From an uncultured Spirochaetales bacterium (GTDB lineage Bacteria > Spirochaetota > Spirochaetia > CAYRYS01), in assembly GCA_964428555.1 (NCBI GenBank), contig CAYRYS010000004.1, forward strand, positions 1-64,000: a stretch of 64,000 nucleotides of DNA, given 5' to 3'. Both the position numbers and the translations under genes were made by a program. The notes under the pieces were generated by a model. The model saw only the letters and a program-made list of their open reading frames with translations, searched no databases and was not told the DNA's origin. Positions within the stretch are counted from its first letter, which is position 1. The number at the start of each line of letters is the position of its first letter. Shown here piece after piece: positions 12,921-31,004 of this stretch.

Positions 12921-14354
12921 ATGATTGAGAATTTACAACAAGTTACCAAGGGCATAGTTACTGCTGAAGTTAAAGGTAAACTCATGCTCGGTATACGCAC
13001 AGGTATGACCGGACGTGCATTTGCAAAAACAAAGCTCATTGAGCTAAAACGCAGCAAAGGCCTCGTAATACAGGAAAATAGAGTAGATGAATGGCAGGCA
13101 AGTGAAATCCAGGAATTTAATAATGAGTCCTACCTATTCGGTCCATACTATGAAGGCGAAAGTCTTTCCAGTGTTCTATCAAAAGAACACACTGCTCCAC
13201 TTGAGGTAATTAAGCGCTTAGTAAAAAACTATCTCCTTTTAAAGGAACGGAAGTTTTACATGCCCACACCACGTGGAAACAGTCTGTTTTTTCTTAAAGA
13301 CGAGGGCATACTCTTTTTACCTGACAAAACAATGCAGGAAACAATTTCATCGCTTACACCGGAAGAGCGGATGGAATTAATTGATAAAATAAACCATCCA
13401 GATTATGCTGGTGAAATTAATATATCCTACTTCCTTGCCGCAGTAACATACAAGCTCTTAACAGGAGACTATCCCTTTACCGGTGAATCGGAACTGCACC
13501 TCCACCAAAGAATACGTACAAGCACACCACTGCCTGCAAGATATCTGCGGCCTGAAATTAAGCAGGAAGTATCGGACAAGCTCAATTCAATATTTCAGGA
13601 GCCCATTCCTCTGGATGATTGGGAGCCGCTGCTTGATGAGTGGGAAAGCCATGGTCTCTTTCGGGAAGTCTCAAACCAGGAAAAGCAGGAGATAATACAG
13701 GAAGGGCTGAAACAAAAGCAGACAAAAGAACGGAAGGAGATGGTCTTTACCTTTCTCAAAACGAAATGGAAAGGTCTATTAGCAAGTATTGCTTCTGCAG
13801 CATTTTTAATTTTCCTTATTACAAGCATTATTATTATCATGCTTGAGCCGAGAGCAACCCGGGGAATGACATCCTATCAGGTTGTGAATACATATTTTTC
13901 CAGTATAAACGACATGGAATTCGACGTATTAGAAGACTGCTTAGACAGGGGAGTCAGGAGAAACCTGGTCGAACAGACAACAAACATGAATGTATTTTCA
14001 AAGATCCGCCAAGGATACGAGGGGGTTACAGGTATTGTTCCCGCGGAAAGCTGGCGGAACGACGGAATGCCTGAAATTGACAGAAACCTATTGATCTACG
14101 GAATAGCAAACCTGGAAATTACCCGGGAAAATGAAACCACCTATCTTGTGGAATATGAAAAATGGGAACCAATCTCTACCCCTCAAGCAGACCCTGAAGA
14201 CACACATATCCTCTGGTTTCAGGGATACAACAGGGTTGAGCGTTTTCACCTCGGACAGGACGGAGAGTATTGGGAAATTCGGGGAATTGAAGTTTTAGAA
14301 GATGAAGAAATCCTGGATAGTGTTCCCTGGCTTGAAGAAGGAGGAACCGAATAA
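12921..14354 (+). CDS. Hypothetical single-pass membrane protein with a degenerate protein-kinase-like cytoplasmic domain
   Basis: AGGAG RBS. Cytoplasmic part carries an eukaryotic-like kinase C-lobe remnant (INISYFLAAVTYKLLTGDYPFTG, like DxWSxGvxxYEmLtGxpPF) but no VAIK/HRD/DFG motifs. A TM helix (LLASIASAAFLIFLITSIIIIML) precedes an extracytoplasmic domain of about 170 aa. Confidence 0.5.
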   Translation: MIENLQQVTKGIVTAEVKGKLMLGIRTGMTGRAFAKTKLIELKRSKGLVIQENRVDEWQASEIQEFNNESYLFGPYYEGESLSSVLSKEHTAPLEVIKRLVKNYLLLKERKFYMPTPRGNSLFFLKDEGILFLPDKTMQETISSLTPEERMELIDKINHPDYAGEINISYFLAAVTYKLLTGDYPFTGESELHLHQRIRTSTPLPARYLRPEIKQEVSDKLNSIFQEPIPLDDWEPLLDEWESHGLFREVSNQEKQEIIQEGLKQKQTKERKEMVFTFLKTKWKGLLASIASAAFLIFLITSIIIIMLEPRATRGMTSYQVVNTYFSSINDMEFDVLEDCLDRGVRRNLVEQTTNMNVFSKIRQGYEGVTGIVPAESWRNDGMPEIDRNLLIYGIANLEITRENETTYLVEYEKWEPISTPQADPEDTHILWFQGYNRVERFHLGQDGEYWEIRGIEVLEDEEILDSVPWLEEGGTE

Positions 14355-14378: not shown

Positions 14379-15164
14379 CTAGGAAATAGTTACGTCCTTT
14401 TTCGCATAGAACAGAGAACGCGGTACGGTTCCATCAATAATCTTGCGTACATCGTAGTTTCCGTTTGCTACGATAGTATCAATTCCAGCCTTTGTTACCA
14501 TTTCCGCAGCTTTTAACTTTGACTGCATCCCCCCTAATCCGAGCCTGCTTTTTCCATTAGAAACCATGCCCCGGATCTCCTCATCAATTTCATGAATCTC
14601 TTCTAATAGATTTACATCTGCAACCTGCTTTGGATCAAGCTGGTATAATCCGTCTACATCAGTAAGCAGGATCGCAAGGTCTACTTTTAGGTTACATGCA
14701 ACAAGTGCAGCAAGAATGTCATTATCAGAAAAATACCCGGTCCCTTCCAGCTCCTCCTTATTGATAAGGTCATTTTCATTAATAATGGGCACCATTCCCC
14801 GCTGCATGTATGTATTGAGAATCTCGATAATCGTCTGCTCTTCCTTAACTGAAGCAAAATTATGGTGTGTCAAAAGCACTTGCGAAATGAAGATATCCTT
14901 CATCTTAAAAAGGTCTTTATAATACTTAATCAACCGCGTCTGCCCGATCCCGGACAAGAGCTGGAGTTCAAGCGTATCCTTCGGCCGTTCGGAAATTCCG
15001 CACACCTCCATTCCGGCTGCGACCGCACCTGAGGATACAATAGTAACCTCGTGTCCTGCAGCATGAAGTGCAGAAATCTCTTTTACCTTGTCTGCCATCC
15101 AGAAGTAGTCAATTCTATTATTTCTGCTAATGAGCGCGCTTCCTGCCTTTATTAGGATTTTCAT
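14379..15164 (-). CDS. proB: Glutamate 5-kinase (short form, no PUA domain)
   Basis: MKILIKAGSALIS... amino-acid-kinase fold. Its ATG overlaps the proA stop (ATGA). Confidence 0.85.
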   Translation of the reverse strand: MKILIKAGSALISRNNRIDYFWMADKVKEISALHAAGHEVTIVSSGAVAAGMEVCGISERPKDTLELQLLSGIGQTRLIKYYKDLFKMKDIFISQVLLTHHNFASVKEEQTIIEILNTYMQRGMVPIINENDLINKEELEGTGYFSDNDILAALVACNLKVDLAILLTDVDGLYQLDPKQVADVNLLEEIHEIDEEIRGMVSNGKSRLGLGGMQSKLKAAEMVTKAGIDTIVANGNYDVRKIIDGTVPRSLFYAKKDVTIS

Positions 15165-16438
15165 AGCATGTCCTTGTGTGTAAATGTTTTTTCTCCATCA
15201 GCATAGGGTGTAACTGTATGGCCTTTGCCTCTGAGTATGTACTTTGTGGTTGTTAACCCTTCTAAGCCTACAGGTCCTCTTGCGTGTATTTTACTGGTTG
15301 AAATACCAACCTCAGCACCGAGGCCGTAACGAAATCCGTCAGCAAAGCGGGTTGAGGCATTGTGCATAACAGAACTTGAGTCTACAAGTCTGAGAAACTC
15401 ATCAGCAGTCGCATCGTTCTCTGTAACAATGCAATCAGTATGATGACTTCCATAAGCATTAATATGCTCCATTGCCTCTGCGGCAGATTCTACGACCTTC
15501 ACAGATAGTATGAGATCTGTATACTCAGTGCTCCAATCTTCCTCTGAAGCTGGAGCACAGGAGATTATGTTACGGGTCTTCTCATCTCCCCGGAGCAAGA
15601 CATCAGTAAGTTTTTCCGCAATCTTCGGAAGCACCTTTTCTGCAACATCCGAATGGACAAGCAGTGTTTCAAGGGCATTACATACCGCAGGGTATTGGCA
15701 TTTTGAGTCGTGTGTCAGTTCTACTGCTTTTGACAAGTCTGCATTTTTATCTATATAAAGATGACAAATCCCGTCAGCATGACCCAGCACAGGTATTTTG
15801 GTGTTTTCCTGAATATACCGGACAAGCGCATTGGAACCACGGGGGATCATAAGGTCAATCAAGTCATCCATTTCCAAGAGCTCTTTAATCTCTTCTCTGG
15901 TTTCCACTAGGTGCAAAGCGCCTGTGTACATTTTACTTGTGTCTTCTGCAGCTTTGCGCATGAGGGAAAAGAGAATTCTATTTGAATACAGCGCTTCTTT
16001 CCCTCCCTTTAACAAGACAGAATTTCCGGATTTCATGCATAGCCCTGCAATCTGTACTAGTGCATCCGGACGTGATTCAAATATGACACCGATTACTCCA
16101 ATAGGCACACTAACCCGCTCAAGTACAAGCCCTGCATCAAGCTCCCGCTTTACACTCCTGCGGCCGAGTGGATCGTCTAATAGAGAAATACTCCGTAAGC
16201 CCTCAGCCATTTTTTTTACCTTTTGTTCAGAAAGCTTGAGCCGCTTTAATAGCGGGCCAGCCAACCCAGTTTTTTCTGCTGCTTCAAGGTCCTTCGCATT
16301 TTCTGTAAGCACCTGTGTAATGTTATCTTCCAGAAGCTGCGCGGCACGGATAAGTGACGCATTCCGTACTTCCTTTAGTGTTGTTGCAAGCAAAAATGAT
16401 GATTTTTTGGCAAGTTCAGCCTGCTCCCGTACTTTCAT
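15161..16438 (-). CDS. proA: Glutamate-5-semialdehyde dehydrogenase (gamma-glutamyl phosphate reductase)
   Basis: 425-aa ALDH-superfamily protein with the ProA catalytic-Cys region VCNALETLLVH. Overlaps proC (ATGA) and proB. Confidence 0.85.
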   Translation of the reverse strand: MKVREQAELAKKSSFLLATTLKEVRNASLIRAAQLLEDNITQVLTENAKDLEAAEKTGLAGPLLKRLKLSEQKVKKMAEGLRSISLLDDPLGRRSVKRELDAGLVLERVSVPIGVIGVIFESRPDALVQIAGLCMKSGNSVLLKGGKEALYSNRILFSLMRKAAEDTSKMYTGALHLVETREEIKELLEMDDLIDLMIPRGSNALVRYIQENTKIPVLGHADGICHLYIDKNADLSKAVELTHDSKCQYPAVCNALETLLVHSDVAEKVLPKIAEKLTDVLLRGDEKTRNIISCAPASEEDWSTEYTDLILSVKVVESAAEAMEHINAYGSHHTDCIVTENDATADEFLRLVDSSSVMHNASTRFADGFRYGLGAEVGISTSKIHARGPVGLEGLTTTKYILRGKGHTVTPYADGEKTFTHKDML

Positions 16439-17223
16439 TTTCCAAGCTCCTTACTCCGCTGAGCAGCCCTTCGAACTGTCTTGCGAATATTTTCTTTTAT
16501 ATTTGATCCCTCAAGCACTTCTCTTCCGGCAACAGTTGTGCCACCTGGTGAGCTCACCATGTTTACCAACTCGTCAGTACTCATTCTCTTTTCCATGAGA
16601 AGCTTTGCAGTTCCGAGAAAGGTTTGATATGTCAATGTCTGTGCAGCCTGCTCCTGGATCCCCATCGAAACAGCTTCTTCAATAAAGCCCTCCATAAGCC
16701 TAGCCACAAAGGCAGGCCCTGAACCGGAAACACCGGTAACTGCATCTAAAAGCTTTTCCGGAAATTCAACCGCAGAACCGGAGGTCTCTAGGAGCGAAAG
16801 AACAATCTTCCTGTCCTCTTCTGTTACTTTTGGGGAAACCGAAAAACCTGCTGCCATTTGGCCGACAAGACAGGGTGTGTTCGGCATAACACGGACAATC
16901 CGTGCATTCGGAAGCAGCTTTTCCAGCTTTGCGATAGGTACACCGGCTGCAATGGATATGAAGCAAGTATTAATATAGCCTAGCTCTGAAAGGACTGTAT
17001 CCATTATTTGGGGTTTAACTGCAAGAAAGACATAGTCGCCTCTGGAAGCAACCTCTTTGTTGCTGTGAAAAACCTTAGCAGTCTCAAAGCTGCTTTGAAA
17101 TATATCCAAACGCTCTGAAGATACATCTGAAGCAAGTATTTCCAGACCCGGAAACTGCCTCGAGATCCCGCTTGCCAAGGCATAAGCCATATTCCCTGCA
17201 CCAATAAATCCGATTGACTCCAT
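16435..17223 (-). CDS. proC: Pyrroline-5-carboxylate reductase
   Basis: N-terminal Rossmann motif IGFIGAGNMAYAL and the P5CR C-terminal dimerisation domain. Confidence 0.85.
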   Translation of the reverse strand: MESIGFIGAGNMAYALASGISRQFPGLEILASDVSSERLDIFQSSFETAKVFHSNKEVASRGDYVFLAVKPQIMDTVLSELGYINTCFISIAAGVPIAKLEKLLPNARIVRVMPNTPCLVGQMAAGFSVSPKVTEEDRKIVLSLLETSGSAVEFPEKLLDAVTGVSGSGPAFVARLMEGFIEEAVSMGIQEQAAQTLTYQTFLGTAKLLMEKRMSTDELVNMVSSPGGTTVAGREVLEGSNIKENIRKTVRRAAQRSKELGK

Positions 17224-17363
17224 TCTTCACCCCTTTTTCTGATTATTTGTACTCTAATATAGAACAAGGATGAATTTCAACCGGGAACACTACGGGATAA
17301 GATAAGTTCATTTTTAGCAATTACATAGTTTATACTGCTATACACACATTCTAATTGTAGAGG

Positions 17364-17915
17364 CTAGTGATAGCATATATCCCTGCTTATTACGCCGCTG
17401 TCCACATATTGAAAATCAGGATCAATTTTCTGCTGAGATACTACGCCTATCATATAATCTTCGGTATTTTGTAATAGATAGTTCCACAGAAATCTATCCT
17501 TACCCGTAAAGGCTCCGCGCCCTTTAATGCATATAGGTATTTCAAACTCCTTCAATGCCTGAGGAAGTCCGAATCCTAATGCTTTCCCGTACGACTCTTT
17601 TAAAGTCCAAATCCGGTAAAAAATATCAGCCTTTTCCCGCGCAGGGGCATTGTTCAATACGGCTTGTTCATAATCTGTCAGATATTTTGCCAGGGACGAA
17701 AAATCGATTATACGTATTTTTTCTATGTCACAGCCTAAAGTGCCCGAGCCGAGAGCACATACAACACGGGCATCAGAGTGAGCAAGAGAAAAAGACAGGG
17801 AAGAATTTACTATATAAGGTTTTCCCTTTCCAGTGGAGCGCAATGTATTTTCATCCAGAATAATATCAAACTCTTCCTTTAGCGCATGGTATAACAGTGC
17901 ATATGCTGTGAGCAT
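17364..17915 (-). CDS. 4'-phosphopantetheinyl transferase, Sfp type (ORF as called from first ATG; likely N-terminally longer, see findings)
   Basis: GKGKPYI...SLSHS, GCDIE, WTLKESYGKALG are the three PPTase motifs. Immediately downstream of the NRPS gene. Confidence 0.75.
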   Translation of the reverse strand: MLTAYALLYHALKEEFDIILDENTLRSTGKGKPYIVNSSLSFSLAHSDARVVCALGSGTLGCDIEKIRIIDFSSLAKYLTDYEQAVLNNAPAREKADIFYRIWTLKESYGKALGFGLPQALKEFEIPICIKGRGAFTGKDRFLWNYLLQNTEDYMIGVVSQQKIDPDFQYVDSGVISRDICYH

Positions 17916-18052
17916 TCTATTTTTATCTTCTGAATATCTGAATGAAGTATATTTGTTTCTTTTATTATGGGGTAATACTGAAAGCAGGTATTCAATAGAA
18001 TTTGAGGATACCTTTTCTAACAGTCCACTGGTAAAAACACGGGTTTTAGTAA

Positions 18053-18784
18053 TTATTTCGTTTCCTGTATTGTCTTACCTATTAAATCTATAATTTCTTC
18101 AGGCGCAAAGGGTTTTGCCAGAACTCCGGCTACTTCCATTTCTTTAAATTTGGTCAATGTTTCAGATTCTTCCTTCGCATAGGCTGTAATGACAATAGTA
18201 GGTACAAGTTTTCCAAGGGATTTTAACTTCAAATATACCTCAAGACCATTGAGTTCTGGTATTCTTACATCAAGAATCAGCAGCTCAGCACCGTTTTCTA
18301 CAACATGCTGTACAGCGTCATATCCTGTTTGAGCGATCTCAACCTGATATCCCTGCTCTTCCAGTAAATCCTTGAGAGAATCTGCGCAGCTTACATCATC
18401 TTCAACAAGCAGAATATACCCGTTTGGACAAATAGATTTGATAACAGAAAAAAGCACCTCTGTTTCAAAAGGCTTTCGGAGCACCTCTAAAGCACCGTGT
18501 TCCATTGCCTGCTCTAAAAGCTGTTCAACTTTATACCCTGTCATCATTACTACTTTACATTCAGGAACGTGTTTCTGTATTTCAAGAAAACTGTCAACTC
18601 CGTTTTTTCCGGGAAGCTTTACATCCATAAAAATAAGATCATAATGGGCATTCTGCGCCATCTCAATAGCTTCCTCTCCTGAAGGTGCTACATCTGCATT
18701 ATACCCGTTTATCTCTAAAATATCTGCTAATGTTTCAGCAAGATCAATATTATCATCTACAATTAAAAAGCGCATATTCATCAA
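18053..18784 (-). CDS. Response regulator with two tandem receiver (REC) domains and no output domain
   Basis: REC1: LIVDDNIDLAETL...DLIFMDVKLPGKNG. REC2: ILLVEDDVSCADSL...LLILDVRIPELNG...K. AAGGA RBS. Confidence 0.8.
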   Translation of the reverse strand: MMNMRFLIVDDNIDLAETLADILEINGYNADVAPSGEEAIEMAQNAHYDLIFMDVKLPGKNGVDSFLEIQKHVPECKVVMMTGYKVEQLLEQAMEHGALEVLRKPFETEVLFSVIKSICPNGYILLVEDDVSCADSLKDLLEEQGYQVEIAQTGYDAVQHVVENGAELLILDVRIPELNGLEVYLKLKSLGKLVPTIVITAYAKEESETLTKFKEMEVAGVLAKPFAPEEIIDLIGKTIQETK

Positions 18785-18852
18785 TCCTTGTCCAATCTCT
18801 TTAATACACAGTATCGTTTATATACCAATTAAAAGTCAATTCTTTCAGTGTA

Positions 18853-21800
18853 TTAGTTTATAAATTTCACCTCCCTACAATGGGCTAACATGCGTTTAAA
18901 ATGATCTCTCTCAACAGCAGGCCAGTGAAATCCCAATTTTGAAAGTAATCGGTTTGTATAGTCAGCTTTTACTAAGTATCCTGTCATATGGGGATTATCC
19001 AGTATATGCGAGTGTAGAATAAGGTTTTGGATATATGGATATATCTCCGGATTCCTGCTTTGCGCATAGAGAAGATCATAGAATTCTTCAATTTCCATAG
19101 TTTCTATTTCTTTTCCGCACCTCTTGAGAAAAGAGCCAAGGTCATACAAACTCAGCGTATTCGGATTTACAATGTGAAAGCATGACTGTATTTTCTCTAG
19201 TGGATTCGCGATTAGGCGGGTAACGGCTTCTGCTGTTTTATCAACAAAAGAAATATCAAATACCTTGTGCTTAAGGTTCGGAAAAGCCTTTAGTTTTATA
19301 TAGGACTGTAGCGCAGTATAAAAGGCATTCTCCCTAATATTCTGCTGAAATATTCCGGTCTCAGAGTCAAACATTATGTTTCCGACTCTGAAGATTACAT
19401 ACCGTTTTCCCTCTAATGCCTTTTTACGTATCAAGTCTTCACCAGTAATTTTTGTATGCACATAATGATTGTCAGAATTCTCCTCAGCATTGTCATATTC
19501 AGTAAAAAAAACAATATCATCTTTCTGCTTCATATGAGCTGTGCCTACACTAGTGGTAGAAATATGATACATATCTTTTTGCTTCCCAGCTTCCGCGAAT
19601 TTCAGGATATGAGAAACTGCAGTTACATTTGCTGCATAAAATTCCTCATATTTTCCATAATGTTTAACTAGAGCAGCTGAGTTGATAATACAATCTACTG
19701 TGTTTGCTAGATAATCATACTCTCTGCATCCCATATCCGGCTTTGCAATATCTCCCTGATAAACGTAGAGACGGCCGGCATATTTTTTGGTTAGATTTTC
19801 TCCGAAATAATTATGAAAACTGCTGCAAGCTCTCTGTATAGGGGTTTCCGCATTTTTCTCCCGAACAATAAGGTGTACTTTTGCTTTTGGAAATTCTTTC
19901 AATACCTCTCTGGTTAAGTAGGCACCTAAGAAACCGGTAGCTCCTGTTATAAGAATATTTGTATAATTAGCTGTATGAAATACTGGAGCAGCAGCGGAAA
20001 CACGACTATTGTATTCTCTCTGCTTAACACCAATAGCCTGGTAAATCTGATTCTCATCCTTAAAATCGTGGGCCTTCTTTCTTAACCGTGTTATTGCAGA
20101 TACCATCTCAATATTCAGCTTTTTCATATGCAGAGCAAGGCTCTCCGGTGTCTCATATTCGAATATTGCATTTAATGAAAGCCGGTATTTTTTTGAAAGC
20201 TCAGCATGAACCTGCACTGCCTTTATTGAGTCTCCTCCTATCTCAAAAAAGTTTTCATAGATACCGATCCGGTTAAGTCCGAGAACATCTTCCCAAACCT
20301 CTATAATGCATTCCTCGCATTCATTTCTAGGAGAACAGTACTCAACACCCGGCCCTCCAGTACCACTAATATCAACAAGCGCTTTTCTATCGATTTTTCC
20401 GTTTTTTGTGACAGGAAATTTCTCAAGGGGAACAATCACTGAGGGCACCATATAACTAGGAAGCGCAGCAATTAGGCTGTTCCGTATTTCTTGTATTGAC
20501 CCATTAAGTACACCTGTAACATACGCTGCAATGTATTGATTTCCATGTTTATCTTTTTTTGCCATTACCAATGCATTTTCAATGGATGGAATAGTTCTTA
20601 GAGTGTGTTCAATCTCACCAAGTTCAACCCTGTTACCCCGGATTTTCACCTGATTATCAATCCTGCCTAAAAATTCGATTGTTCCGTTTACCAGCCACCT
20701 GCCAAGGTCCCCTGACCTGTATAGTTTCTTATCTTCAACAAAGGGATTTTCCACAAAGCGTTGTTTTGTTAGTTCTGTGTTATGGTAATACCCAACACCA
20801 AGCCCGGCGCCCCCAATATACAGTTCCCCGGGAGTACCAATAGGTACAGGATTTTTGTAGGCGTCTAATACATATATTTCATGATTATGAATAGGCTTCC
20901 CGATTGACGGCTTTTTCGTGTACCGGTTATCGGTACGAACCAATTGACTCGTTGAAAAAACAGTTGTCTCAGTTGGGCCATAGAGATTATATAAGGAAAA
21001 AGGCAGTGTATGCTCAGGAAATTCAGCAAGCTCATCCCCGCCTGTTAAGAGAACACGAAGCTGTGTATTTTCGCGCTCCCAAGATAGGGAGAGAAGGCGG
21101 TTTGTTATTGGCGAAGGTTGAAAAGTTATTGTGATTGCATTTGCCCCGAGCCAATGCTGAAGGTCCTGTGGACTTAAACGCACCATGGACGGAGTAATAT
21201 ACAATGTAGCACCGCATGTAAGTCCAGGCCACAGCTCCAGTGCCATTGCATCAAATCCAGGAGAAGCAGCAAGTGTCATCCTATCTGTATCAGAGACTCG
21301 GTACTCTGATCGATAAAAATGCAGGAGGTTCACAAAGCTATTATGAGAGATCTCTACACCTTTCGGGTGCCCTGTAGATCCGGAAGTATAGATTATATAA
21401 GCAGGGTCATTGCTTTTAACATTACTCGTAAAAGAAGAAACTTCGCCCAGAGTATTTTCATCATCCATAATAACTGGATCAATATTCTGAAATATATGAG
21501 CATCCTGTTTAAAGCAAAGAGCAGCCTCAGCCTTACTGTTTTCAAGGATGTACTTTACCCGTGCCTCTGGGTACTCCCGGTCAATGGGGAGATAAGGTAT
21601 TCCGTTCTTCATTACTGCAAGTATGCTTATTACAGTATAAATGGAAACATCAGCAAGCACTAAGACAGGCTTTGTTTTATTTGTAATCCTTTGCTTTAGG
21701 ACTCCAGCAAGATAATTTGCACGTCTATCCAGCAGTCTGTAGCTTATTTCCGTATTCCCTTGCACTATCGCGGTTTTTTCCGGAAAACGCTGCACAGCCT

Positions 21801-24800
21801 CCTGAAATAAACTAAGAATTGTTAAATTTTCTCCTTCTAAATACTCTGGTTTTTTTAGTCCTTGAAATTCTTCCAAGAGGAGCTTCTTCTCTTCAGTACT
21901 GATACAAGGAAGCTCGGATAATTTCCTATCAGGCGCTTGCGTGCTCAGCTCCAACATAGATATAAAGCGCTGAGCAATGAGGAACACATACTCATCAGGA
22001 TATATATTCTTATTATACAGAAATCGGATCCTTAACTCATTCTCAGGCAATATCTCAATATTGAATGAATACTCTGTCTGTTCAAAAGCAGTGTAAGAAA
22101 GAACCTTTGCCCTCCCTGCATTACCGATATACTCATGGCCGATTAGAGGAGTTTCACTATCATAATTTTCAAATCCATAAACGTGCTTAACTACATTCTT
22201 GCCGAACATGCTGTTTATTTTGTACAAAGGATAAAATTGGTGCTCAGTTCGAATTTCTGCAGCAGCTGTTCTTATACAAGAAGAAACACTAGCCTCCGGA
22301 TCCGCATCCACCCGTACAGGGAGAATATTAATACAGAGTCCTGCTATTTTATCCATGCCTTCTACCTCTGGCGGTCGTACTGTTGACACAGCTCCAAAGA
22401 CAGCTTCTTCTGTTCCTGTACTCTTGGCAATCAGCAATCCCCAAATAGTCTGCATCACAATATTTAGGGTAGTCCCAAAACTCTTGGCTAATTCCCGAGT
22501 GCGGCCTGACAATTCCGGAGAACAGCGAAACTCCTGCTGCCTTGGTGCATACTCAGTATCCCCATGATAAAATCCCGGTATTTCAGATGCTTCTCCTATT
22601 CCCTTTAAATATTCTCTCCAGTATTTTTCACTGTTTTTATACCTTTGCTTTGAAAACCATTTTTCATAAACAAGCAATGACGGACTAGGCTCATACCCTT
22701 TATGACTTCCCACTATCCGGTTTAAAAGTTCATCCACTATCTTGAACATACTCCATCCATCAAGAATAATGTGATGAAAACAGATTAATAACCCATAGCA
22801 GCCTTCTCTTCGTTTCTGTATCCGCACTCGGAACAAGGGCCCCCTGGCAAGCAAAAAAGGGGCTTTTCTCTCATTTTCCAAAATCTGCTTCCATAGCTCT
22901 TCTTCAGAGGCAGATTCAGAGTGATCATATTCCTTTACATCCGGATCCACTCTGCGCAAAACTACCCTCAGCGGCTCAGTCAGATGATCAGAGAGAAAAA
23001 TACTCCGCAAGGCTTCATGTGTACGGTGAAGCTGTACCACAGCGTCTGTTACTTCAAACACATCAATTTCACCTTCCAGTATTACCTCCATAAGCTCAAA
23101 ATACGCTTTTGAATCAGGGTGTTTTACAGCCTGTACAAGCAGCCCCTGTTCCAGCGGAGTCAATTTCCCAAGCCGTTCAATTGAAGAAATCTCAACCTGC
23201 TCCTTTATGGCATTCCAATCTTCTCTGTGTAATCCAGGCAAGAACAGGTCCCCTGGAGTTGTCACCCTTTCCTGTTTTGTCTGCAAAAAACGCAGCACAG
23301 TTCTCAGTTCATTCTTAAAAGCAATTGGAAATACTGCCGGATCATTCACAGGAACTCCTTCAGCATGTATTTCAAAAAGCGTGTGCAGTTTACCTTCATG
23401 GATCCACGCATTTATAGAGAAAGGATAGGGTTGACGGTTTTGGCATGCAGAGGTTAGCCGCAATTCTTGCAGATCCAGCATTCTGTTGTCATTACCGGAA
23501 GCATCGATTTCTCCGAGAAAGTTAAAACTTATTTCAGGCATAATACTGGGAACTTCATTATTCTTAGACAGATACACAAAAGGCGCATACCAAAACCCTT
23601 TATCCGGCACCATGAGAAGCCGTTCTTTCACAGAAATCATATTTTCTTCAGGATTATGTAGGTACTGAAGAAGAAGAGGATAAAAACTGGTAAACCATCC
23701 AATGGTATCGCCGCAATCCAGGTCAAGGACATCCTCTCTACCGTGAGTTTCTTTCATAATGTAAATAGTATCGAGCTCCCCCCATTGATACAAAGCTCTA
23801 GATAAAAGAGTAAGCAGTACAGCTTCCATGGACATCCCATAGATCTGCTGGGCCTTCTGGGCTAATGAAGCTGTCTCATCAAAACTAATTTCTATTTCCT
23901 CAGAAAATACGGTACAGGACTTTCCAAACACCTGTTTATCGAAAAAAACGCACTCACCCTTTTCCGATAATTGTTTGTTCCAATATTCAATCTGCCAATC
24001 CACAACCCCGCTTTCCAATGTTGTATACAGTTTTTCTGTCCACCCCTTAAATGAAACACTTGATCGCTTCAAGGATGTATTAGGAGCGGACAATCCTTTT
24101 TCTATCATAACTTTCAGGATATTCCAGGACACGCTGTCAACACAAAGATGGTGAATACAAAGTTTTAAAAATTGGACACCATCTTGGTAATAGAGTTTGT
24201 ACCCCCCCACAGGACCTTGTGCAATATTAATCTTAGATGCCAGCTCATCCTCTTCCTGCCAAGGGACTATCATCTCAGTTCCTTCAGGCATTATCTGCTG
24301 ATAAAGCACTTCTCCTGTTTCCGTATTAAGGGGATACAAAGTACGGAGCGCTTCTTGGGTATCCACTATCTCCTGTAACACCCTCTGCAAGTCTGTAGGA
24401 TCTATTGGTTCAGCAAAGGAAAAGAGCGCTTCTTGTGCCCAGTAGTGCGGATTATTCAAGCGAAGGGAGGAAAACCATTTTTGAATAGAAGAAAGCCGGA
24501 ATGTCCCTGTCTCCTGTACAGTAACCGCAACTTCTCCTTCCGCAAGTGAATTGATCTTACCCGATAGTTCTGTAAGCACTGGAGCAGCAAAAACATCGGA
24601 TACTGTACACTTGTACCCAGACTCACGAAGAGCAGTACAGACCATAATGGCTTTAATTGAATCGCCGCCTATGTGAAAAAAATTATCATTTTTTTCAATA
24701 GAAGAAGCGCTTAGTACAGACTTCCATGCTGAAAATACTGCCTTTTCCTTTTTAGTAAGGGAAGAATAGCTGCTGGAACCAGAGATTTCATACTGACCCT

Positions 24801-27639
24801 GTCCATGCATACACTGTTTTGCCAAAGCCTTTCTATCTATTTTACCACTTTGGGTTCTTGGAAATTTTTCGGTATCATGAAAAAACCCGGGCACCATGTA
24901 TCCTGGGAGTTTTTCACTCAAGAGCTTACGTATTCCTTCTATAGATATTTCCTTATTTTGTATAAAAACGGCATGAAGCGAAAAGGTGCCTGTAGTTTCT
25001 TTAACAGGCACGACAACAGCATGCTGAATTTCAGAGAAGCCATGTAATGCAGCCTCAATTTCGCCGACCTCCACTCTGTGGCCACGGATTTTTATCTGGT
25101 TATCAATTCGCTGTATAAAACGAATATCGCCCCCGGGAAGTCTGCGGACAAGGTCCCCTGAACAGTACATCCGCATTTCCGGGAAATACGGATCCTGCAC
25201 AAAGCGATCTTGCGTAAGCTCCTCATTATTCACATACCCTAAACTTACCCCAAGCCCGCTAATACATAGCTCCCCTGACCAGGCCTCAGGTAATACTTTC
25301 CTGTATGTGTTCATGATATACACAATACTGCTTGGTTCAGGCTTTCCAATATTTACAATATTTGCTTTAAGATCATCCATTCCCAGCTGTTTCAAGGTCA
25401 CATAAATAGTTGTTTCTGTAGGTCCATATTGGTTTAGTATCCGTATATGAGAATACTTTTTTTTCCATTCAATAAGTGCAGCAGGAGTAAGTGCTTCTCC
25501 GCCTAGGATTACACACCTAAGAGACCGGCACTTGGCTTCTCCTGAAAGTAAATCCTGATTTACAACTCCGTAAAAAGATGAAGGAACTTGTGTAAATACC
25601 GTAACCTTATAAGCTTCAAGCAGATCTAAACAAGCAATAGGATCGGTTGTTACCGCCTTGGGCACAATCACAAGCCGGCCGCCGTACAGCAGGGGCGCGA
25701 ATATTTCCATAACAGAAGGATCAAATATGAATGAATGAAACATAGTCCAAACATCATTGCAGCTAATTCCGAGGGGATTATCAAAATGCAGTAAAAGGCG
25801 CACAATGTTCTGATGAGAAACAAGCACTCCCTTAGGTTTGCCGGTAGTTCCGGAGGTATAGATGATATATGCTCCGTTTTCAGGAGATAGCTGACTAGGC
25901 TCTGTACGGGCAGGCTGCTGAGATAAATGATACATATCTTCAATATCCACGGACATAGTATTTCCGAAGCCCTGACTTTTTTTGGATTTAATAAGGATTA
26001 CTGCGTTACTATCCGAAAGCATGTATTCAGCTCTGCGGCAGGGTGTTTCCGGATCAATTGGAAGATACACAGCACCTGCTTTTAGAACTCCAATAATGGC
26101 GAGGATCATTGGAATGCCGCGGTCTAAAGATATCGCAATAGTATCCCCCATAGCTGCCCCTTTTTTGTTCAAATACAAGGCAATGGCACTGCTTTTCCTA
26201 TCAAGCTCTTCATATGTTATGCTTTCATGCTCATACAGCACTGCTGTTTTCTGGGGATACATTTTTGCAACGGCTTCAAAGGCAGAGACAATTGTTGCAT
26301 TCAGAGGGTATCCGCTGTTGAAATCTGTTTTTTTCTTATAAGCAGCCAATTCTGTACTGCTAAGCAGTTCTAAAGAGGAAACCGGGGAATTGTATGCTTT
26401 CAAACCGCTCTTGAATAAGTTCATCATAACCTTAGGAATTGCCGCTATTTCCTGTTCAGAAAAAACCTCAGTCTGATAATCAATTTCAAACAGGATCCTC
26501 CCTGAGCCGTCCCTTTGGTTTACATGAATAACCAAAGGGGATTGCTCATATCCGTAGAACTGCCACTGATTGTTTATGTCACATTGGTTTTCCTCATATG
26601 AAAACACAATCTGCAGTAAATCAGAGTGTATTTCCTTCTTTTTCCTTAATTCCTCTAGTAGTGAGTCATAGGGATATTTCTGGTTCCGCAGCAGTGAAGT
26701 TATGTCAGCTGCTGTCTGTTTAACAATCTCGCTAAAACTATTATTTGGGTCTATACAAATATTATATGCCATAGTATTTACAAACATACCCGCTGCAGCT
26801 TTAGCAGAACGGCTTGTTCTCCCGTGGGTTGTTGTACCAACAATAAAGCGTTCCTTGTTTTGCCAATGCAGAATTAACACTTTCAACAGGGAAAAGAAAA
26901 CAGAATAAAGCGAACAGGAGTTCTCTGCACAATAGCGCTCAAGTAATTGTTTCTCTTCATAAGACAGAGCAGTTTCATAGCGGTCTGCTTTTGGAGAAGT
27001 ATATTCAGGGAAATCGAAAGGCTCAGGTAGATCATTAAGATGGTCCAGCCAATACTGTTTATTTTTTTCTGCCCGTTCTGTAGTTAAATACCTTTGTTCT
27101 TCCTCAATGAAAGAAGCATAATAGGTATTCCTTTTTCTATCAGGAAAATTGCCCGACTCTATCAATGAACAATAGTGCACATAAATTTCCTCTGCGAGCA
27201 GCTGAAAAGTCCAGCCGTCAGAGACAAGGTGATGCATTCTCAACAGGAAGCCTGATGAACCGTCCGCGTACTCAGCAGGAAAGACTGAGATGTAATTTGA
27301 AAGATCACAGTTATCGCCTGATGTACTAATTTTATGTATCCATTCTTTCTCTTCAGACAGAGAGTTCAGGATTATAGGCTCCCTGATATCATGCTTCTTG
27401 TAATCAGTAAAACTCTGTCTGAGACCGCTTTTATCTATAACAAACTCTACATTTAATGCCGAATGCAGCCTCAGAGTATTTTCTATTGCTTTTATGAGAA
27501 GCGGAAATTGTATTTCACAGGGAAAAGCTATTCTATAGGTTAATATGCAAAGCGCAGTATTAGGGTACTTCTGAGCAGAATACCAAATCCTTTTTTGTGC
27601 ATGAGACAAGTCTGTTAATAAACCATAATTACCTATCAT
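18853..27639 (-). CDS. Non-ribosomal peptide synthetase, 2928 aa, domain order C-A-T-E-C-A-T-R (terminal thioester reductase)
   Basis: Motifs in order: HHLVSDGW (C1, near nt 27220); SGTTGKPKG, NQYGPTETT and KIRGHRVEVGEIE (A1, near 25840); FFHIGGDSIKA (T1, near 24665); HHLCVDSVSW (E-type His motif, near 24140); HHIILDGWS (C2, near 22775); SGSTGHPKG and NLYGPTETT (A2, near 21385); FFEIGGDSIKA (T2, near 20235); ILITGATGFLGAYL (NAD(P)-binding R domain, near 19940). AAGGAAAG RBS. Confidence 0.9.
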   Translation of the reverse strand: MIGNYGLLTDLSHAQKRIWYSAQKYPNTALCILTYRIAFPCEIQFPLLIKAIENTLRLHSALNVEFVIDKSGLRQSFTDYKKHDIREPIILNSLSEEKEWIHKISTSGDNCDLSNYISVFPAEYADGSSGFLLRMHHLVSDGWTFQLLAEEIYVHYCSLIESGNFPDRKRNTYYASFIEEEQRYLTTERAEKNKQYWLDHLNDLPEPFDFPEYTSPKADRYETALSYEEKQLLERYCAENSCSLYSVFFSLLKVLILHWQNKERFIVGTTTHGRTSRSAKAAAGMFVNTMAYNICIDPNNSFSEIVKQTAADITSLLRNQKYPYDSLLEELRKKKEIHSDLLQIVFSYEENQCDINNQWQFYGYEQSPLVIHVNQRDGSGRILFEIDYQTEVFSEQEIAAIPKVMMNLFKSGLKAYNSPVSSLELLSSTELAAYKKKTDFNSGYPLNATIVSAFEAVAKMYPQKTAVLYEHESITYEELDRKSSAIALYLNKKGAAMGDTIAISLDRGIPMILAIIGVLKAGAVYLPIDPETPCRRAEYMLSDSNAVILIKSKKSQGFGNTMSVDIEDMYHLSQQPARTEPSQLSPENGAYIIYTSGTTGKPKGVLVSHQNIVRLLLHFDNPLGISCNDVWTMFHSFIFDPSVMEIFAPLLYGGRLVIVPKAVTTDPIACLDLLEAYKVTVFTQVPSSFYGVVNQDLLSGEAKCRSLRCVILGGEALTPAALIEWKKKYSHIRILNQYGPTETTIYVTLKQLGMDDLKANIVNIGKPEPSSIVYIMNTYRKVLPEAWSGELCISGLGVSLGYVNNEELTQDRFVQDPYFPEMRMYCSGDLVRRLPGGDIRFIQRIDNQIKIRGHRVEVGEIEAALHGFSEIQHAVVVPVKETTGTFSLHAVFIQNKEISIEGIRKLLSEKLPGYMVPGFFHDTEKFPRTQSGKIDRKALAKQCMHGQGQYEISGSSSYSSLTKKEKAVFSAWKSVLSASSIEKNDNFFHIGGDSIKAIMVCTALRESGYKCTVSDVFAAPVLTELSGKINSLAEGEVAVTVQETGTFRLSSIQKWFSSLRLNNPHYWAQEALFSFAEPIDPTDLQRVLQEIVDTQEALRTLYPLNTETGEVLYQQIMPEGTEMIVPWQEEDELASKINIAQGPVGGYKLYYQDGVQFLKLCIHHLCVDSVSWNILKVMIEKGLSAPNTSLKRSSVSFKGWTEKLYTTLESGVVDWQIEYWNKQLSEKGECVFFDKQVFGKSCTVFSEEIEISFDETASLAQKAQQIYGMSMEAVLLTLLSRALYQWGELDTIYIMKETHGREDVLDLDCGDTIGWFTSFYPLLLQYLHNPEENMISVKERLLMVPDKGFWYAPFVYLSKNNEVPSIMPEISFNFLGEIDASGNDNRMLDLQELRLTSACQNRQPYPFSINAWIHEGKLHTLFEIHAEGVPVNDPAVFPIAFKNELRTVLRFLQTKQERVTTPGDLFLPGLHREDWNAIKEQVEISSIERLGKLTPLEQGLLVQAVKHPDSKAYFELMEVILEGEIDVFEVTDAVVQLHRTHEALRSIFLSDHLTEPLRVVLRRVDPDVKEYDHSESASEEELWKQILENERKAPFLLARGPLFRVRIQKRREGCYGLLICFHHIILDGWSMFKIVDELLNRIVGSHKGYEPSPSLLVYEKWFSKQRYKNSEKYWREYLKGIGEASEIPGFYHGDTEYAPRQQEFRCSPELSGRTRELAKSFGTTLNIVMQTIWGLLIAKSTGTEEAVFGAVSTVRPPEVEGMDKIAGLCINILPVRVDADPEASVSSCIRTAAAEIRTEHQFYPLYKINSMFGKNVVKHVYGFENYDSETPLIGHEYIGNAGRAKVLSYTAFEQTEYSFNIEILPENELRIRFLYNKNIYPDEYVFLIAQRFISMLELSTQAPDRKLSELPCISTEEKKLLLEEFQGLKKPEYLEGENLTILSLFQEAVQRFPEKTAIVQGNTEISYRLLDRRANYLAGVLKQRITNKTKPVLVLADVSIYTVISILAVMKNGIPYLPIDREYPEARVKYILENSKAEAALCFKQDAHIFQNIDPVIMDDENTLGEVSSFTSNVKSNDPAYIIYTSGSTGHPKGVEISHNSFVNLLHFYRSEYRVSDTDRMTLAASPGFDAMALELWPGLTCGATLYITPSMVRLSPQDLQHWLGANAITITFQPSPITNRLLSLSWERENTQLRVLLTGGDELAEFPEHTLPFSLYNLYGPTETTVFSTSQLVRTDNRYTKKPSIGKPIHNHEIYVLDAYKNPVPIGTPGELYIGGAGLGVGYYHNTELTKQRFVENPFVEDKKLYRSGDLGRWLVNGTIEFLGRIDNQVKIRGNRVELGEIEHTLRTIPSIENALVMAKKDKHGNQYIAAYVTGVLNGSIQEIRNSLIAALPSYMVPSVIVPLEKFPVTKNGKIDRKALVDISGTGGPGVEYCSPRNECEECIIEVWEDVLGLNRIGIYENFFEIGGDSIKAVQVHAELSKKYRLSLNAIFEYETPESLALHMKKLNIEMVSAITRLRKKAHDFKDENQIYQAIGVKQREYNSRVSAAAPVFHTANYTNILITGATGFLGAYLTREVLKEFPKAKVHLIVREKNAETPIQRACSSFHNYFGENLTKKYAGRLYVYQGDIAKPDMGCREYDYLANTVDCIINSAALVKHYGKYEEFYAANVTAVSHILKFAEAGKQKDMYHISTTSVGTAHMKQKDDIVFFTEYDNAEENSDNHYVHTKITGEDLIRKKALEGKRYVIFRVGNIMFDSETGIFQQNIRENAFYTALQSYIKLKAFPNLKHKVFDISFVDKTAEAVTRLIANPLEKIQSCFHIVNPNTLSLYDLGSFLKRCGKEIETMEIEEFYDLLYAQSRNPEIYPYIQNLILHSHILDNPHMTGYLVKADYTNRLLSKLGFHWPAVERDHFKRMLAHCREVKFIN

Positions 27640-27785: not shown

Positions 27786-28637
27786 ATGAATAAATCTATT
27801 CTCTCAATTCTTATCGTATTTATCGTTTTATCCATTGGAGCTTGTAACAGAACAAGCAATATTGAAGTTCAGGAGGTAGCTTCCCAAGAACAGGATGCTG
27901 ATTCGGGAAGTGAAGCAGAAACAGAAATTGAAACTCCGGAAATTCGAATATCCCCGGAAGACGAGCTTACTATCTATGCCCGTTCCGAATATGAACCCTT
28001 TATATACCTAGATGAAAATGAAGAAATGACAGGATTTGTTATTGAAGTAGAAGAAGCAATTCTCGAAGAGATGGGCCAGAATTATCGCTTTATCCCGTAT
28101 ACAGATAATCAACAAGCTTTGTTTGACGTAAAGGTCGGAACTGTACACGCCATATTAGCATGTACAAGAGATCCGATATTTGATGTGTATACGTTAAGTG
28201 ATACATACTATTCCATCACAGCTCCCCTCTTTGTGCGCAATGAAACCGAGAATATCGGAGGGGATAATCTTGAGCAGGTAATTGAAAGCCTTTCAGGCAG
28301 GACTGTCGGAGTACAAAGCAGAGGTGCAGAGGTGAGTTTTTTCCGTAGTTATCCGGAAATAGAGGTGCGGGAATACCCTACAGGTACAGTTGCAATGGAA
28401 GCGCTAGTAAATGGAGAGGTGGACGCTAAAATGGAAGTGCTGGAAAACGGATTATTCCTTGCTGAACAAAACAACTGGGACATTAAGCCTGTGGGCGTCC
28501 CGATTATACAAATTGAAACAGCAACCGGGTTTTACGCAGGGCTTGATGACAGTACTGTTGAACGGTATAACCAGGCAATGCAGATAGTTGTTGAAAACGG
28601 GACCTTTGACGCGATATATTCCAGATGGTTCGAATAG
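27786..28637 (+). CDS. Periplasmic solute-binding lipoprotein (family-3 / amino-acid-binding fold)
   Basis: Lipoprotein signal MNKSILSILIVFIVLSIGAC, acidic linker, then the SBP_bac_3-like fold. Sits immediately upstream of a Cache histidine kinase. Confidence 0.65.
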   Translation: MNKSILSILIVFIVLSIGACNRTSNIEVQEVASQEQDADSGSEAETEIETPEIRISPEDELTIYARSEYEPFIYLDENEEMTGFVIEVEEAILEEMGQNYRFIPYTDNQQALFDVKVGTVHAILACTRDPIFDVYTLSDTYYSITAPLFVRNETENIGGDNLEQVIESLSGRTVGVQSRGAEVSFFRSYPEIEVREYPTGTVAMEALVNGEVDAKMEVLENGLFLAEQNNWDIKPVGVPIIQIETATGFYAGLDDSTVERYNQAMQIVVENGTFDAIYSRWFE

Positions 28638-28724
28638 CAAATGTATCCGCCCTGCCTGAAAGGAACAAACTAATTAAACAAAGCATCGATATGGTCAAAA
28701 GTCATAGGGTTTTAAGAGGTATAT

Positions 28725-31004
28725 GTGAATATAAAAAGCAAGATTCGTCTCTTTATTATCAGCAGTCTAATTATCATCACTACAGTCGCCGGACTGCTCT
28801 ATGCTATTGTTGGAGCAAGGAGAATATCAGCAGAATCGAAGGAAAATGTTAATCTTATAGTTAGTAACTATGCAGAGATATTCAATGTGAATATGCAGAA
28901 CTACAAGCGGATCACTCAGGATTTTTCTGCCTCAGTTGTAGTTGGAACATACATTCCTGAAGTATTTGCAGAAGCCAGCCGATTGTATCCTGAGTTTGAG
29001 CATATCGTATATGCAAATCAGGAAGCCCGGATTCTCCATACCTATCCATATCGAGAAGATATCATTGGACGAAACATAAGTGATGAAGCATATTGGCAGC
29101 AAGCTATAGTATCGGGAGACACATACATATCAGAGATCAATACAGACTTTGGATACCCTGCAATCATTTTTGCTGCACCGGTGTTCTCTTATTTTCAAAA
29201 TGAAAGCGAACCGAATTTTCATGGAACCGTACTGGTAACCCTACCCCTAGAATACTTTCAGCAGCGCATACAGGAGATTACTATTGGTGAAACAGGTTCT
29301 GCTTTTTTGATCAATAGAAACGGGGAATTCTTGGGGCATACCGACGGATCAGAATTACCCACAGGGAACCTATCACAATGGAGTGAATATTATGGTTTTT
29401 CAGAGATTGAAGAATATTTAGACGGCAGCTACACAGGATCCGGGAATATTTACACACCGGAACAGCTATATCTATCTTTTCATCCTATCCCGGAAACAGA
29501 TTGGTTCCTTATCATCACTCAGCAGATGTCGGAACTACATAAAGACCTGTATAACACTATCCTTCTCCTTCTCATTATTTTTCTTATCAGCATAGGAATC
29601 GCTGCATTAGTTAGTAAGTATGCAGCAAAAAGCATTATTTCACCGCTTCAACAGAATCTTGATCTGCTAAAGAGCCTTGCCGAAGGAAAAACAGACTCGA
29701 GCAAAATACAATGGATGCAGCAAAATGATGAGTTTGGAGAGATTGCTGAACAATTTAATAAGGTCATATCAAACCTCAACACAATTGCTAAGCGTTTAGA
29801 TATTGACCTGCAGCGGGAAAAGCAGGAAAAAATCAGAACAGTATCAGCTCTTCATGATACTCAAGCGCGTTTTAAGGCAATTTTCAACCAGACTTTTCAG
29901 TATATATGGCTCCTCTCCCCGGACGGCGCAATACTCGAGGCAAATTCAACCTTTTTGAATTCTGCCGGTTTGGAGAGAAGCGGAATATTACAGATTGACT
30001 TTTGCAAAGCCCAGTGGTGGATCAACGAAAAGACAAAGTCCATTGTAACAAAAAACTTTAACGAAGCAAGGAACGGAATCCTGGTGCGTTTTGAAACAGA
30101 GATTCATGTCTCAGACAGTATTCATTCCCTGGACTTCTCATTAAAACCTATTTTTTTAGAGAACGACCCCAGTGAAGTTACATTAATTATAGCTGAAGGC
30201 AGAGACATTACTCAAAGAAAACAGATGCAGGCAGAACTTGAAAAGCATAAAAATCAGTTAGAAGTGCTGGTCCAAGAACGGACACAGGAACTGGAAGCAG
30301 CACAAGCTGAGCTTATAAAAAAGGAAAAGTTCTCAGTACTGGGCCAGCTTACCGCGATAGTAAGCCATGAAATCCGCAACCCCCTAGGTACGATCCGCAG
30401 TTCCGCATATATTTTAGAAAAACGTTCTGCAAAAGAAGATGAAAAGATAAACCGCGCTATTACAAGAATACAGAGGAATGTAATTCGCTGCGACTCCATT
30501 ATTGAAGAACTACTGGATTATACCAGAAACACGAAGGTGGAACTTGTTCAAAAGAATATTGATCAATGGATTCAAGACTTTATTGAAACCTATGAAAAAG
30601 CTGAGGGAATTCCGATCACCCTAGATCTCCACTCAGAAATGGATATCAACTTTGATCCTGAACAGATTCGAAGAGTTTTTATTAATTTAATTGACAATGC
30701 TGTACATGCAATTCAAGATATACCTGCAGAGAACGTGGATTCAAATTATATAAATATTAGTACAGAGAATAACGGAGATTCTATAAGAATACTAATATCT
30801 GACACAGGGTCGGGGATATCCAAGGAAAATAAAGAGAAGATTTTTGAACCGCTTTTCAGCACAAAGGGATTCGGAGTCGGACTTGGACTCCCGATTGTAA
30901 AACACATAATCGACCTGCATGCAGGAAAAATAGAACTGTATTCTGAAACAGAAAAGGGCACAACGTTTGTCATCACACTTCCAAAGGAAGGACCTGAGAT
31001 ATGA
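28725..31004 (+). CDS. Sensor histidine kinase (TM - Cache-like periplasmic domain - TM - HAMP - PAS - HisKA - HATPase)
   Basis: GTG start after AAGAGGT. H-box SHEIRNPLGTIRSS. G-boxes DTGSGISKENKEKIFEPLFSTKGFGVGLGL. Confidence 0.85.
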   Translation: MNIKSKIRLFIISSLIIITTVAGLLYAIVGARRISAESKENVNLIVSNYAEIFNVNMQNYKRITQDFSASVVVGTYIPEVFAEASRLYPEFEHIVYANQEARILHTYPYREDIIGRNISDEAYWQQAIVSGDTYISEINTDFGYPAIIFAAPVFSYFQNESEPNFHGTVLVTLPLEYFQQRIQEITIGETGSAFLINRNGEFLGHTDGSELPTGNLSQWSEYYGFSEIEEYLDGSYTGSGNIYTPEQLYLSFHPIPETDWFLIITQQMSELHKDLYNTILLLLIIFLISIGIAALVSKYAAKSIISPLQQNLDLLKSLAEGKTDSSKIQWMQQNDEFGEIAEQFNKVISNLNTIAKRLDIDLQREKQEKIRTVSALHDTQARFKAIFNQTFQYIWLLSPDGAILEANSTFLNSAGLERSGILQIDFCKAQWWINEKTKSIVTKNFNEARNGILVRFETEIHVSDSIHSLDFSLKPIFLENDPSEVTLIIAEGRDITQRKQMQAELEKHKNQLEVLVQERTQELEAAQAELIKKEKFSVLGQLTAIVSHEIRNPLGTIRSSAYILEKRSAKEDEKINRAITRIQRNVIRCDSIIEELLDYTRNTKVELVQKNIDQWIQDFIETYEKAEGIPITLDLHSEMDINFDPEQIRRVFINLIDNAVHAIQDIPAENVDSNYINISTENNGDSIRILISDTGSGISKENKEKIFEPLFSTKGFGVGLGLPIVKHIIDLHAGKIELYSETEKGTTFVITLPKEGPEI

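Follow-up and report, generated by a model that had tools for sequence, protein, structure and literature searches.

Near-cognate codons serve as weak starts in bacterial translation, rarely but in known cases. The E. coli genes infC and pcnB start at AUU, and AUA, AUU, AUC and CUG yield 1-2% of the AUG level in this species (0.02-3% in other constructs) (10.1101/063800). The infC, ccpN and citZ genes of S. aureus start at AUA and cvfC1 at AUU, with about 10-30% of the AUG level in reporters (PMC13009471), and the native ATA start of the P. syringae gene for HopF2 limits its expression (PMC11641854). Initiation factor 3 (IF3) disfavours both non-canonical starts and reinitiation that lacks a Shine-Dalgarno (SD) sequence (PMC2268962). 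Overlaps of -4 and -1 nt between neighbouring genes support termination-reinitiation (PMC10666635). Here we describe a gene that appears to combine the two situations. It lies in a stretch of 64,000 nt from an uncultured Spirochaetales bacterium (assembly GCA_964428555.1, contig CAYRYS010000004.1, positions 1 to 64,000; below, the window) and encodes a predicted 4'-phosphopantetheinyl transferase (PPTase) of the Sfp type, downstream of a non-ribosomal peptide synthetase (NRPS) and directly behind a response regulator consisting of two receiver domains (REC-REC).

Callers start the PPTase gene at ATG 17915, which gives a 183-aa open reading frame (ORF). The first-pass annotation, made from the letters alone, had stated that the frame contains no other ATG, GTG or TTG down from the preceding in-frame stop, and the reading of the frame bears this out. 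On the reverse strand it runs TAA (18077..18075) GAC AAT ACA GGA AAC GAA ATA (18056..18054) ATT (18053..18051) ACT AAA ACC CGT and so on to AAT AGA ATG (17915..17913), and none of the 53 codons between the stop and the ATG is ATG, GTG or TTG. This start-free leader is the longest among the real genes of the window, where the median is 7.5 codons. The sole longer one in the window, of 86 codons, belongs to a stop-to-stop ORF at 48875..49402 (+), which is antisense to the 1112-aa gene 46807..50145 and is most likely a shadow ORF. Given the trinucleotide frequencies of the window, a run of 53 codons with neither a stop nor a canonical start would arise by chance with a probability of about 0.007, and 53 codons free of stops alone with a probability of about 0.09.

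The PPTase frame overlaps the end of the regulator gene in the same direction, stop against start, in one of two ways. The regulator stop TAA and the ATA triplet overlap to give ATAA (-4), as had been noted before. The claim that this ATA is the only plausible start did not hold: the very next codon, ATT, shares one base with the same stop to give TAATT (-1), an analogue of TAATG, and is equally plausible. Neither triplet is a canonical NTG start. Both canonical arrangements are in use nearby, as the proC/proA and proA/proB junctions of the same operon are ATGA overlaps, and a TAATG junction in nearly the same context, AAATAATGAAA, occurs at position 2787 of the window. The locus thus resembles the coupled -4 (ATGA) and -1 (TAATG) gene pairs (Huber et al. 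2019/2023) in geometry, strand and operon organization, with ATA or ATT instead of NTG and with coupling that is putative.

The 47 codons between ATA and ATG 17915 are real coding sequence. The N-terminal domain PF22624 (AASDHPPT_N) covers residues 18-101 of the 230-aa protein read from ATA, with 33.6 bits against a cut-off of 27, and precomputed domain lists contain it for the 230-aa form and lack it for the 183-aa form. The alignment with Sfp of B. subtilis (1qr0/4mrt) starts at query residue 19, opposite Sfp residue 15, with E about 3e-14. It had been proposed that the called ORF lacks the N-terminus of the Sfp fold, that the upstream codons match it, and that the true N-terminus lies at the regulator stop; the domain, the Sfp alignment, the homologues and a structural model agree with all three. 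In an alignment of the query, 18 database homologues and Sfp (A1), 17 of 19 sequences retain the N-terminal region, and their first residue precedes strand b1 by 1-3 positions, where ATA and ATT lie; homologues beginning at the internal methionine, which would have spoken for the short form, are not what was seen. Translated searches (tblastn) reach upstream of position 17915 for 7 of 9 independent homologues. Compared alone with a profile of homologue N-termini, the 47-residue extension was outscored by only 10 of 2000 shuffled sequences. The 183-aa ORF is a truncation introduced by gene callers that accept only ATG, GTG and TTG, because homology, domains and the fold model all place coding sequence upstream of Met48.

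In the AF2 model, which was built on the alignment of homologues without Sfp, the extension forms strand b1 (residues 4-11), two helices (18-27 and 30-38) and the start of a third (42-63). The model has a pLDDT of 88.7 and a pTM of 0.88, and the blocks over residues 1-50 score 88-96. A Foldseek comparison with Sfp (4mrt_A) gives E 3e-18 and a TM-score of 0.83 (query) or 0.84 (target) over 226 columns. Met48 falls inside helix 42-63 and aligns with Sfp T44. In Sfp, the 3'-phosphate of CoA is bound through salt bridges from Lys28 and Lys31 (PMC2148441), and in a phmmer alignment the counterparts of these lysines are K32 and K35, both within the extension. Initiation at Met48 would, by the model, cost the product one strand and two helices, together with half of the site for the CoA 3'-phosphate.

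The C-terminal domain PF01648 (ACPS) scores 61 bits against a cut-off of 25, and only with the 47 codons included do both Pfam domains pass their gathering scores. The ORF is intact over 230 codons, with no stop or frameshift. All family-invariant residues are there, K79, G108, D110, W150, K153, E154 and K158 among them, as is E112, whose column is nearly invariant in alignment A1; D110, E112, E154 and K158 are invariant or nearly so in alignments A1 and A2. We take the Sfp residues D107, E109, E151 and K155 to be those that bind the metal and act in catalysis. The segments GIDIE and WSMKESxxK of Sfp appear here as GCDIE and WTLKESxxK, which preserve these residues. By domains, predicted fold and motifs the protein is a member of the Sfp-type (group II) PPTase family, and the corresponding activity is predicted. 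It shares with Sfp the two-lobed fold over the full length, a monomeric pseudo-dimer of about 230 residues in the model, the pair PF22624 and PF01648, the aligned lysines for the CoA 3'-phosphate and the location in an NRPS operon. Unlike Sfp, to which it is only about 20-22% identical, it has a putative near-cognate start overlapping the upstream regulator gene.

The junction carries a candidate ribosome-binding site, AGGAAA, at an ideal spacing from both triplets. Its duplex energy with the anti-SD sequence, -4.3 kcal/mol, is similar to those of the regulator (-5.0), the NRPS (-5.1) and proB (-4.9). Genes of the window generally use AGGAGG-type sites, with a median of -7.1 kcal/mol compared to -2.5 at random positions. 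As evidence the AGGAAA motif is modest, since -4 kcal/mol is attained at 24% of random positions. No terminators were found between the genes, promoter-like matches are at chance level, and an Rfam scan of 16900..19000 gave no match.

The bases of the junction are reproducible. The exact protein cluster has two members, the 183-aa form and the 230-aa form MFP4362226.1, named 'MAG: 4'-phosphopantetheinyl transferase family protein [Spirochaetia bacterium]' (MAG, metagenome-assembled genome). The latter is identical to the product read from ATA and comes from GCA_046542135.1 (JBKHBY010000001.1), where the coding sequence (CDS; gene 3001..3693 of locus L002) starts at ATA, overlaps the regulator by 4 nt and has ATAA in the DNA. 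NCBI annotation, then, already uses the ATA start, chosen independently on grounds of homology. This genome differs from the window at two positions in 6.6 kb, 18910 (C/A) and 19185 (A/G), both in the 3' end of the NRPS coding sequence. Across 14530..18998 no base differs between the window and the Logan unitig assembly of SRR11308339, an independent record that likewise has the ATAA and agrees with the window at 18910. The junction is thus ATAA in 3 of 3 assemblies, representing two genotypes; an ATG allele, which had been named as what would overturn the first-pass annotation at 18056..18054, occurs in none of them.

Taken together, these data make it on balance probable that a complete Sfp-type PPTase of 229-230 residues is encoded here and is initiated at the near-cognate AUA 18056 or AUU 18053 at the regulator stop. 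Ribosomes finishing the REC-REC regulator would terminate on its UAA, having passed the AGGA motif 6-9 nt earlier. Reinitiation, or de novo binding of the 30S subunit, could then place fMet-tRNA on AUA (AUAA, -4) or on AUU (UAAUU, -1). The efficiency would be low, from a few percent up to some tens of percent of that of AUG, and would supply the PPTase in small, catalytic quantities linked to translation of the message for the NRPS and the regulator. A weak start would be compatible with function because a PPTase acts catalytically. The extent of the coding region, the fold, the lack of a canonical start, the geometry of the overlap, the SD-like motif and the reproducibility of the base are shown by the data; it is the start at the junction, its efficiency and its coupling to the regulator that we infer. 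AUU is the better documented of the two as a bacterial start, as in infC and pcnB.

The genes known to start at AUA or AUU (infC, pcnB, ccpN, citZ, cvfC1, hopF2) offer a comparison. Like them, the PPTase gene has no canonical in-frame start at a conserved N-terminus and has AUA or AUU, here with a candidate SD motif upstream, and by analogy low, IF3-sensitive expression may be expected. The E. coli, S. aureus and P. syringae cases were mapped experimentally and several are conserved across species, whereas the start considered here is predicted from sequence. The S. aureus genes have very strong extended SD sequences, and that of the PPTase is modest. Unlike in those genes, the candidate start overlaps the upstream stop codon.

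A number of observations weigh against initiation at the junction. The choice between AUA and AUU is left with two candidate codons. The extension is AT-rich, with a GC content of 0.29 compared to 0.41 in the rest of the gene (0.30 at first codon positions, GC1), which is unusual for coding sequence, though the homology and the fold model are clear. The frequency with which random positions match the anti-SD sequence as well as AGGAAA does has been given above. No special RNA structure distinguishes the junction from shuffled sequences (z 0.44). The ATA call at NCBI is homology-driven annotation and not an experiment. Selected weak starts are usually argued for from conservation of the non-canonical codon, and the material for this here is two near-identical genotypes, both with ATAA. 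A word-indexed search of 5.8 billion clusters found no PPTase orthologue above 39% identity other than the gene's own 183- and 230-aa forms, and scans of GTDB genomes and JGI metagenomes found no relative of the PPTase. The nearest PPTases (P0003, P0004, P0007) stand in contexts unrelated to this locus.

The regulator tells more about the history of the junction. REC-REC proteins of its family are widespread across phyla. Its best relatives, at 54-56% identity, are encoded directly after an NRPS of about 2900 aa with the same architecture (NRPS identity 35-38%), and this combination, a C-A-T-C-A-T-reductase NRPS followed by a stand-alone REC-REC regulator, is retained in two distant metagenome contigs (L009/L010 1..5717; L011 1..5717). 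In the former the regulator is the last gene, followed by a hairpin with a T-run, as judged by eye, and a convergent gene; in the latter it is followed by an unrelated 114-aa ORF. No PPTase gene follows the regulator in these two related clusters, and none lies within 10 kb in 77 GTDB loci with REC-REC relatives (0/77). The regulator/PPTase junction is therefore lineage-specific. It may be young, and the start codon may simply have been damaged when the junction formed or afterwards.

Such damage is the most serious alternative. The junction would once have been ATGA or TAATG and would recently have lost its start through a G-to-A or a G-to-T change, respectively, leaving the PPTase essentially untranslated, a young pseudogene as yet free of further lesions, and the NRPS would rely on another PPTase or be silent. 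We regard this as possible, if rather unlikely. Either canonical junction is a single substitution away and both types occur in the window; in E. coli, AUG outperforms near-cognate starts 30- to 1000-fold; and the junction is lineage-specific, with its ATA or ATT seen in two near-identical genotypes only. On the other hand, the ORF is intact over all 230 codons with every invariant residue, the codons upstream of Met48 are free of stops, the SD-like motif is retained, and both genotypes carry the same allele. The intact ORF, the motif and the shared allele favour function over decay. Moreover, near-cognate starts reach 10-30% of AUG in Gram-positives, and catalytic amounts of a PPTase would probably suffice.

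A stronger version of initiation at the junction is equally tentative. AUA or AUU might have been selected as an attenuator open solely to ribosomes fresh from termination on the regulator UAA, and would then fix a low ratio of PPTase in an IF3-sensitive manner. If true, the junction would provide an example from nature of termination-reinitiation at a near-cognate codon within a -4 or -1 overlap, with PPTase synthesis strictly coupled to the NRPS-regulator message.

It is very improbable that the 183-aa product from ATG 17915 is real and functional and the upstream similarity a relic. This ATG is the sole canonical start and was chosen by two gene callers. However, it has no SD sequence (-1.5 kcal/mol), it lies inside a helix, so that b1, two helices and the residues aligned with Sfp K28 and K31 would be lost, and the region in question is retained in 17 of 19 homologues. 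A sequencing or assembly error that hides a true ATGA or TAATG is just as improbable. All the records are metagenome assemblies and were compared at the level of assemblies, but the three were made by different pipelines and agree at the junction. GCA_046542135.1 is not a copy of the window, since it differs at two nearby sites, and the 90% protein cluster holds only the 183- and 230-aa forms, with the sole contig found to encode the latter reading ATA. Three assemblies and two genotypes without an ATG allele thus make an assembly error unlikely. Least credible of all is a -1 frameshift at the last sense codon of the regulator (ACG AAA UAA), with tRNA-Lys giving up AAA to re-pair with GAA as the stop codon occupies the A site, to yield a REC-REC-PPTase fusion: the PPTase frame is indeed -1 relative to the regulator and open over its last 7 codons, the re-pairing would take only a first-position G-U pair, and an SD-like motif lies upstream, but there is neither a slippery heptamer X XXY YYZ nor downstream structure, none of the 20 PPTase homologues is listed with a receiver domain and none of the 120 listed regulator homologues with a PPTase domain, and the PPTase alignment begins exactly where free-standing homologues start.

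Features of the PPTase locus and its neighbours in the window
Feature	Coordinates	Strand	Remarks
Full-length CDS of predicted Sfp-type PPTase	17364..18056	-	230 codons from ATA, 229 from ATT 18053; stop TAG 17366..17364
47-codon N-terminal extension	17916..18056	-	missed by ATG/GTG/TTG gene calling
ATA, candidate start	18054..18056	-	2-nt overlap with the regulator stop triplet; ATAA (-4) arrangement
ATT, candidate start	18051..18053	-	one base in common with the regulator stop; TAATT (-1)
TAA, stop of the REC-REC response regulator	18053..18055	-	
Internal ATG (Met48)	17913..17915	-	where the 183-aa gene call begins; not the true start
In-frame TAA bounding the PPTase frame upstream	18075..18077	-	
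AGGAAA, SD-like motif	18061..18066	-	6 nt before ATA, 9 nt before ATT
Response regulator, two receiver domains, no output domain	18053..18775	-	240 aa; Pfam Response_reg in 2 stretches, E 4e-51
NRPS	18853..27639	-	2928 aa; Condensation x3, AMP-binding x2, PP-binding x2, terminal reductase
proC, proA, proB (proline biosynthesis)	14379..17223	-	downstream of the PPTase gene; ATGA overlaps

The NRPS upstream is the presumed client of the PPTase. We found no second PPTase in the 64-kb window, and the rest of the genome may hold another. S. aureus operons of the ausA-ausB type consist of an NRPS with a terminal reductase followed by its own Sfp-type PPTase. The present locus is alike in that its NRPS is di-modular, has a reductase as its last domain and is accompanied downstream by a dedicated PPTase gene, and unlike in that a REC-REC regulator stands between the two and the NRPS has an extra N-terminal condensation domain.

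The regulator extends 2-4 residues past the C-terminal ends of its closest relatives. Mechanical ORF calling places the regulator start at TTG 18784, and both the annotated product and the alignment with relatives place it at ATG 18775 (MRFLIVDD). The regulator, made of receiver domains alone, may be dedicated to the NRPS operon. Divergent from the NRPS, at 27786..33079 (+), are genes for a family-3 solute-binding protein, a dCache histidine kinase and a hybrid kinase with receiver domains; these could possibly be a sensory system feeding the REC-REC regulator. On the other side, the PPTase gene is separated from proC, proA and proB, which follow on the same strand, by 141 nt containing no terminator-like site and no Rfam match, and these three genes may supply proline or a building block derived from 1-pyrroline-5-carboxylate (P5C) to the NRPS. 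Facing proB in convergent orientation, a 477-aa ORF at 12921..14354 (+) matches no Pfam family at E <= 1e-5.

Neither outcome, a weak start or a dead one, alters general understanding, and the value of the finding is a practical one for expressing the cluster. Callers limited to ATG, GTG and TTG remove 47 residues, a fifth of the fold, and domain searches with the short form miss the N-terminal domain. Heterologous expression of the 183-aa ORF to activate the NRPS would be predicted to give an inactive protein; the 230-aa form with an added ATG should be used. A dead start may mean a silent NRPS cluster in this uncultured spirochaete. Should the near-cognate start be in use, a gene of secondary metabolism would join the few bacterial genes known to be held down by AUA or AUU, and the junction would be a natural test case for the strictness of start-codon choice in termination-reinitiation.

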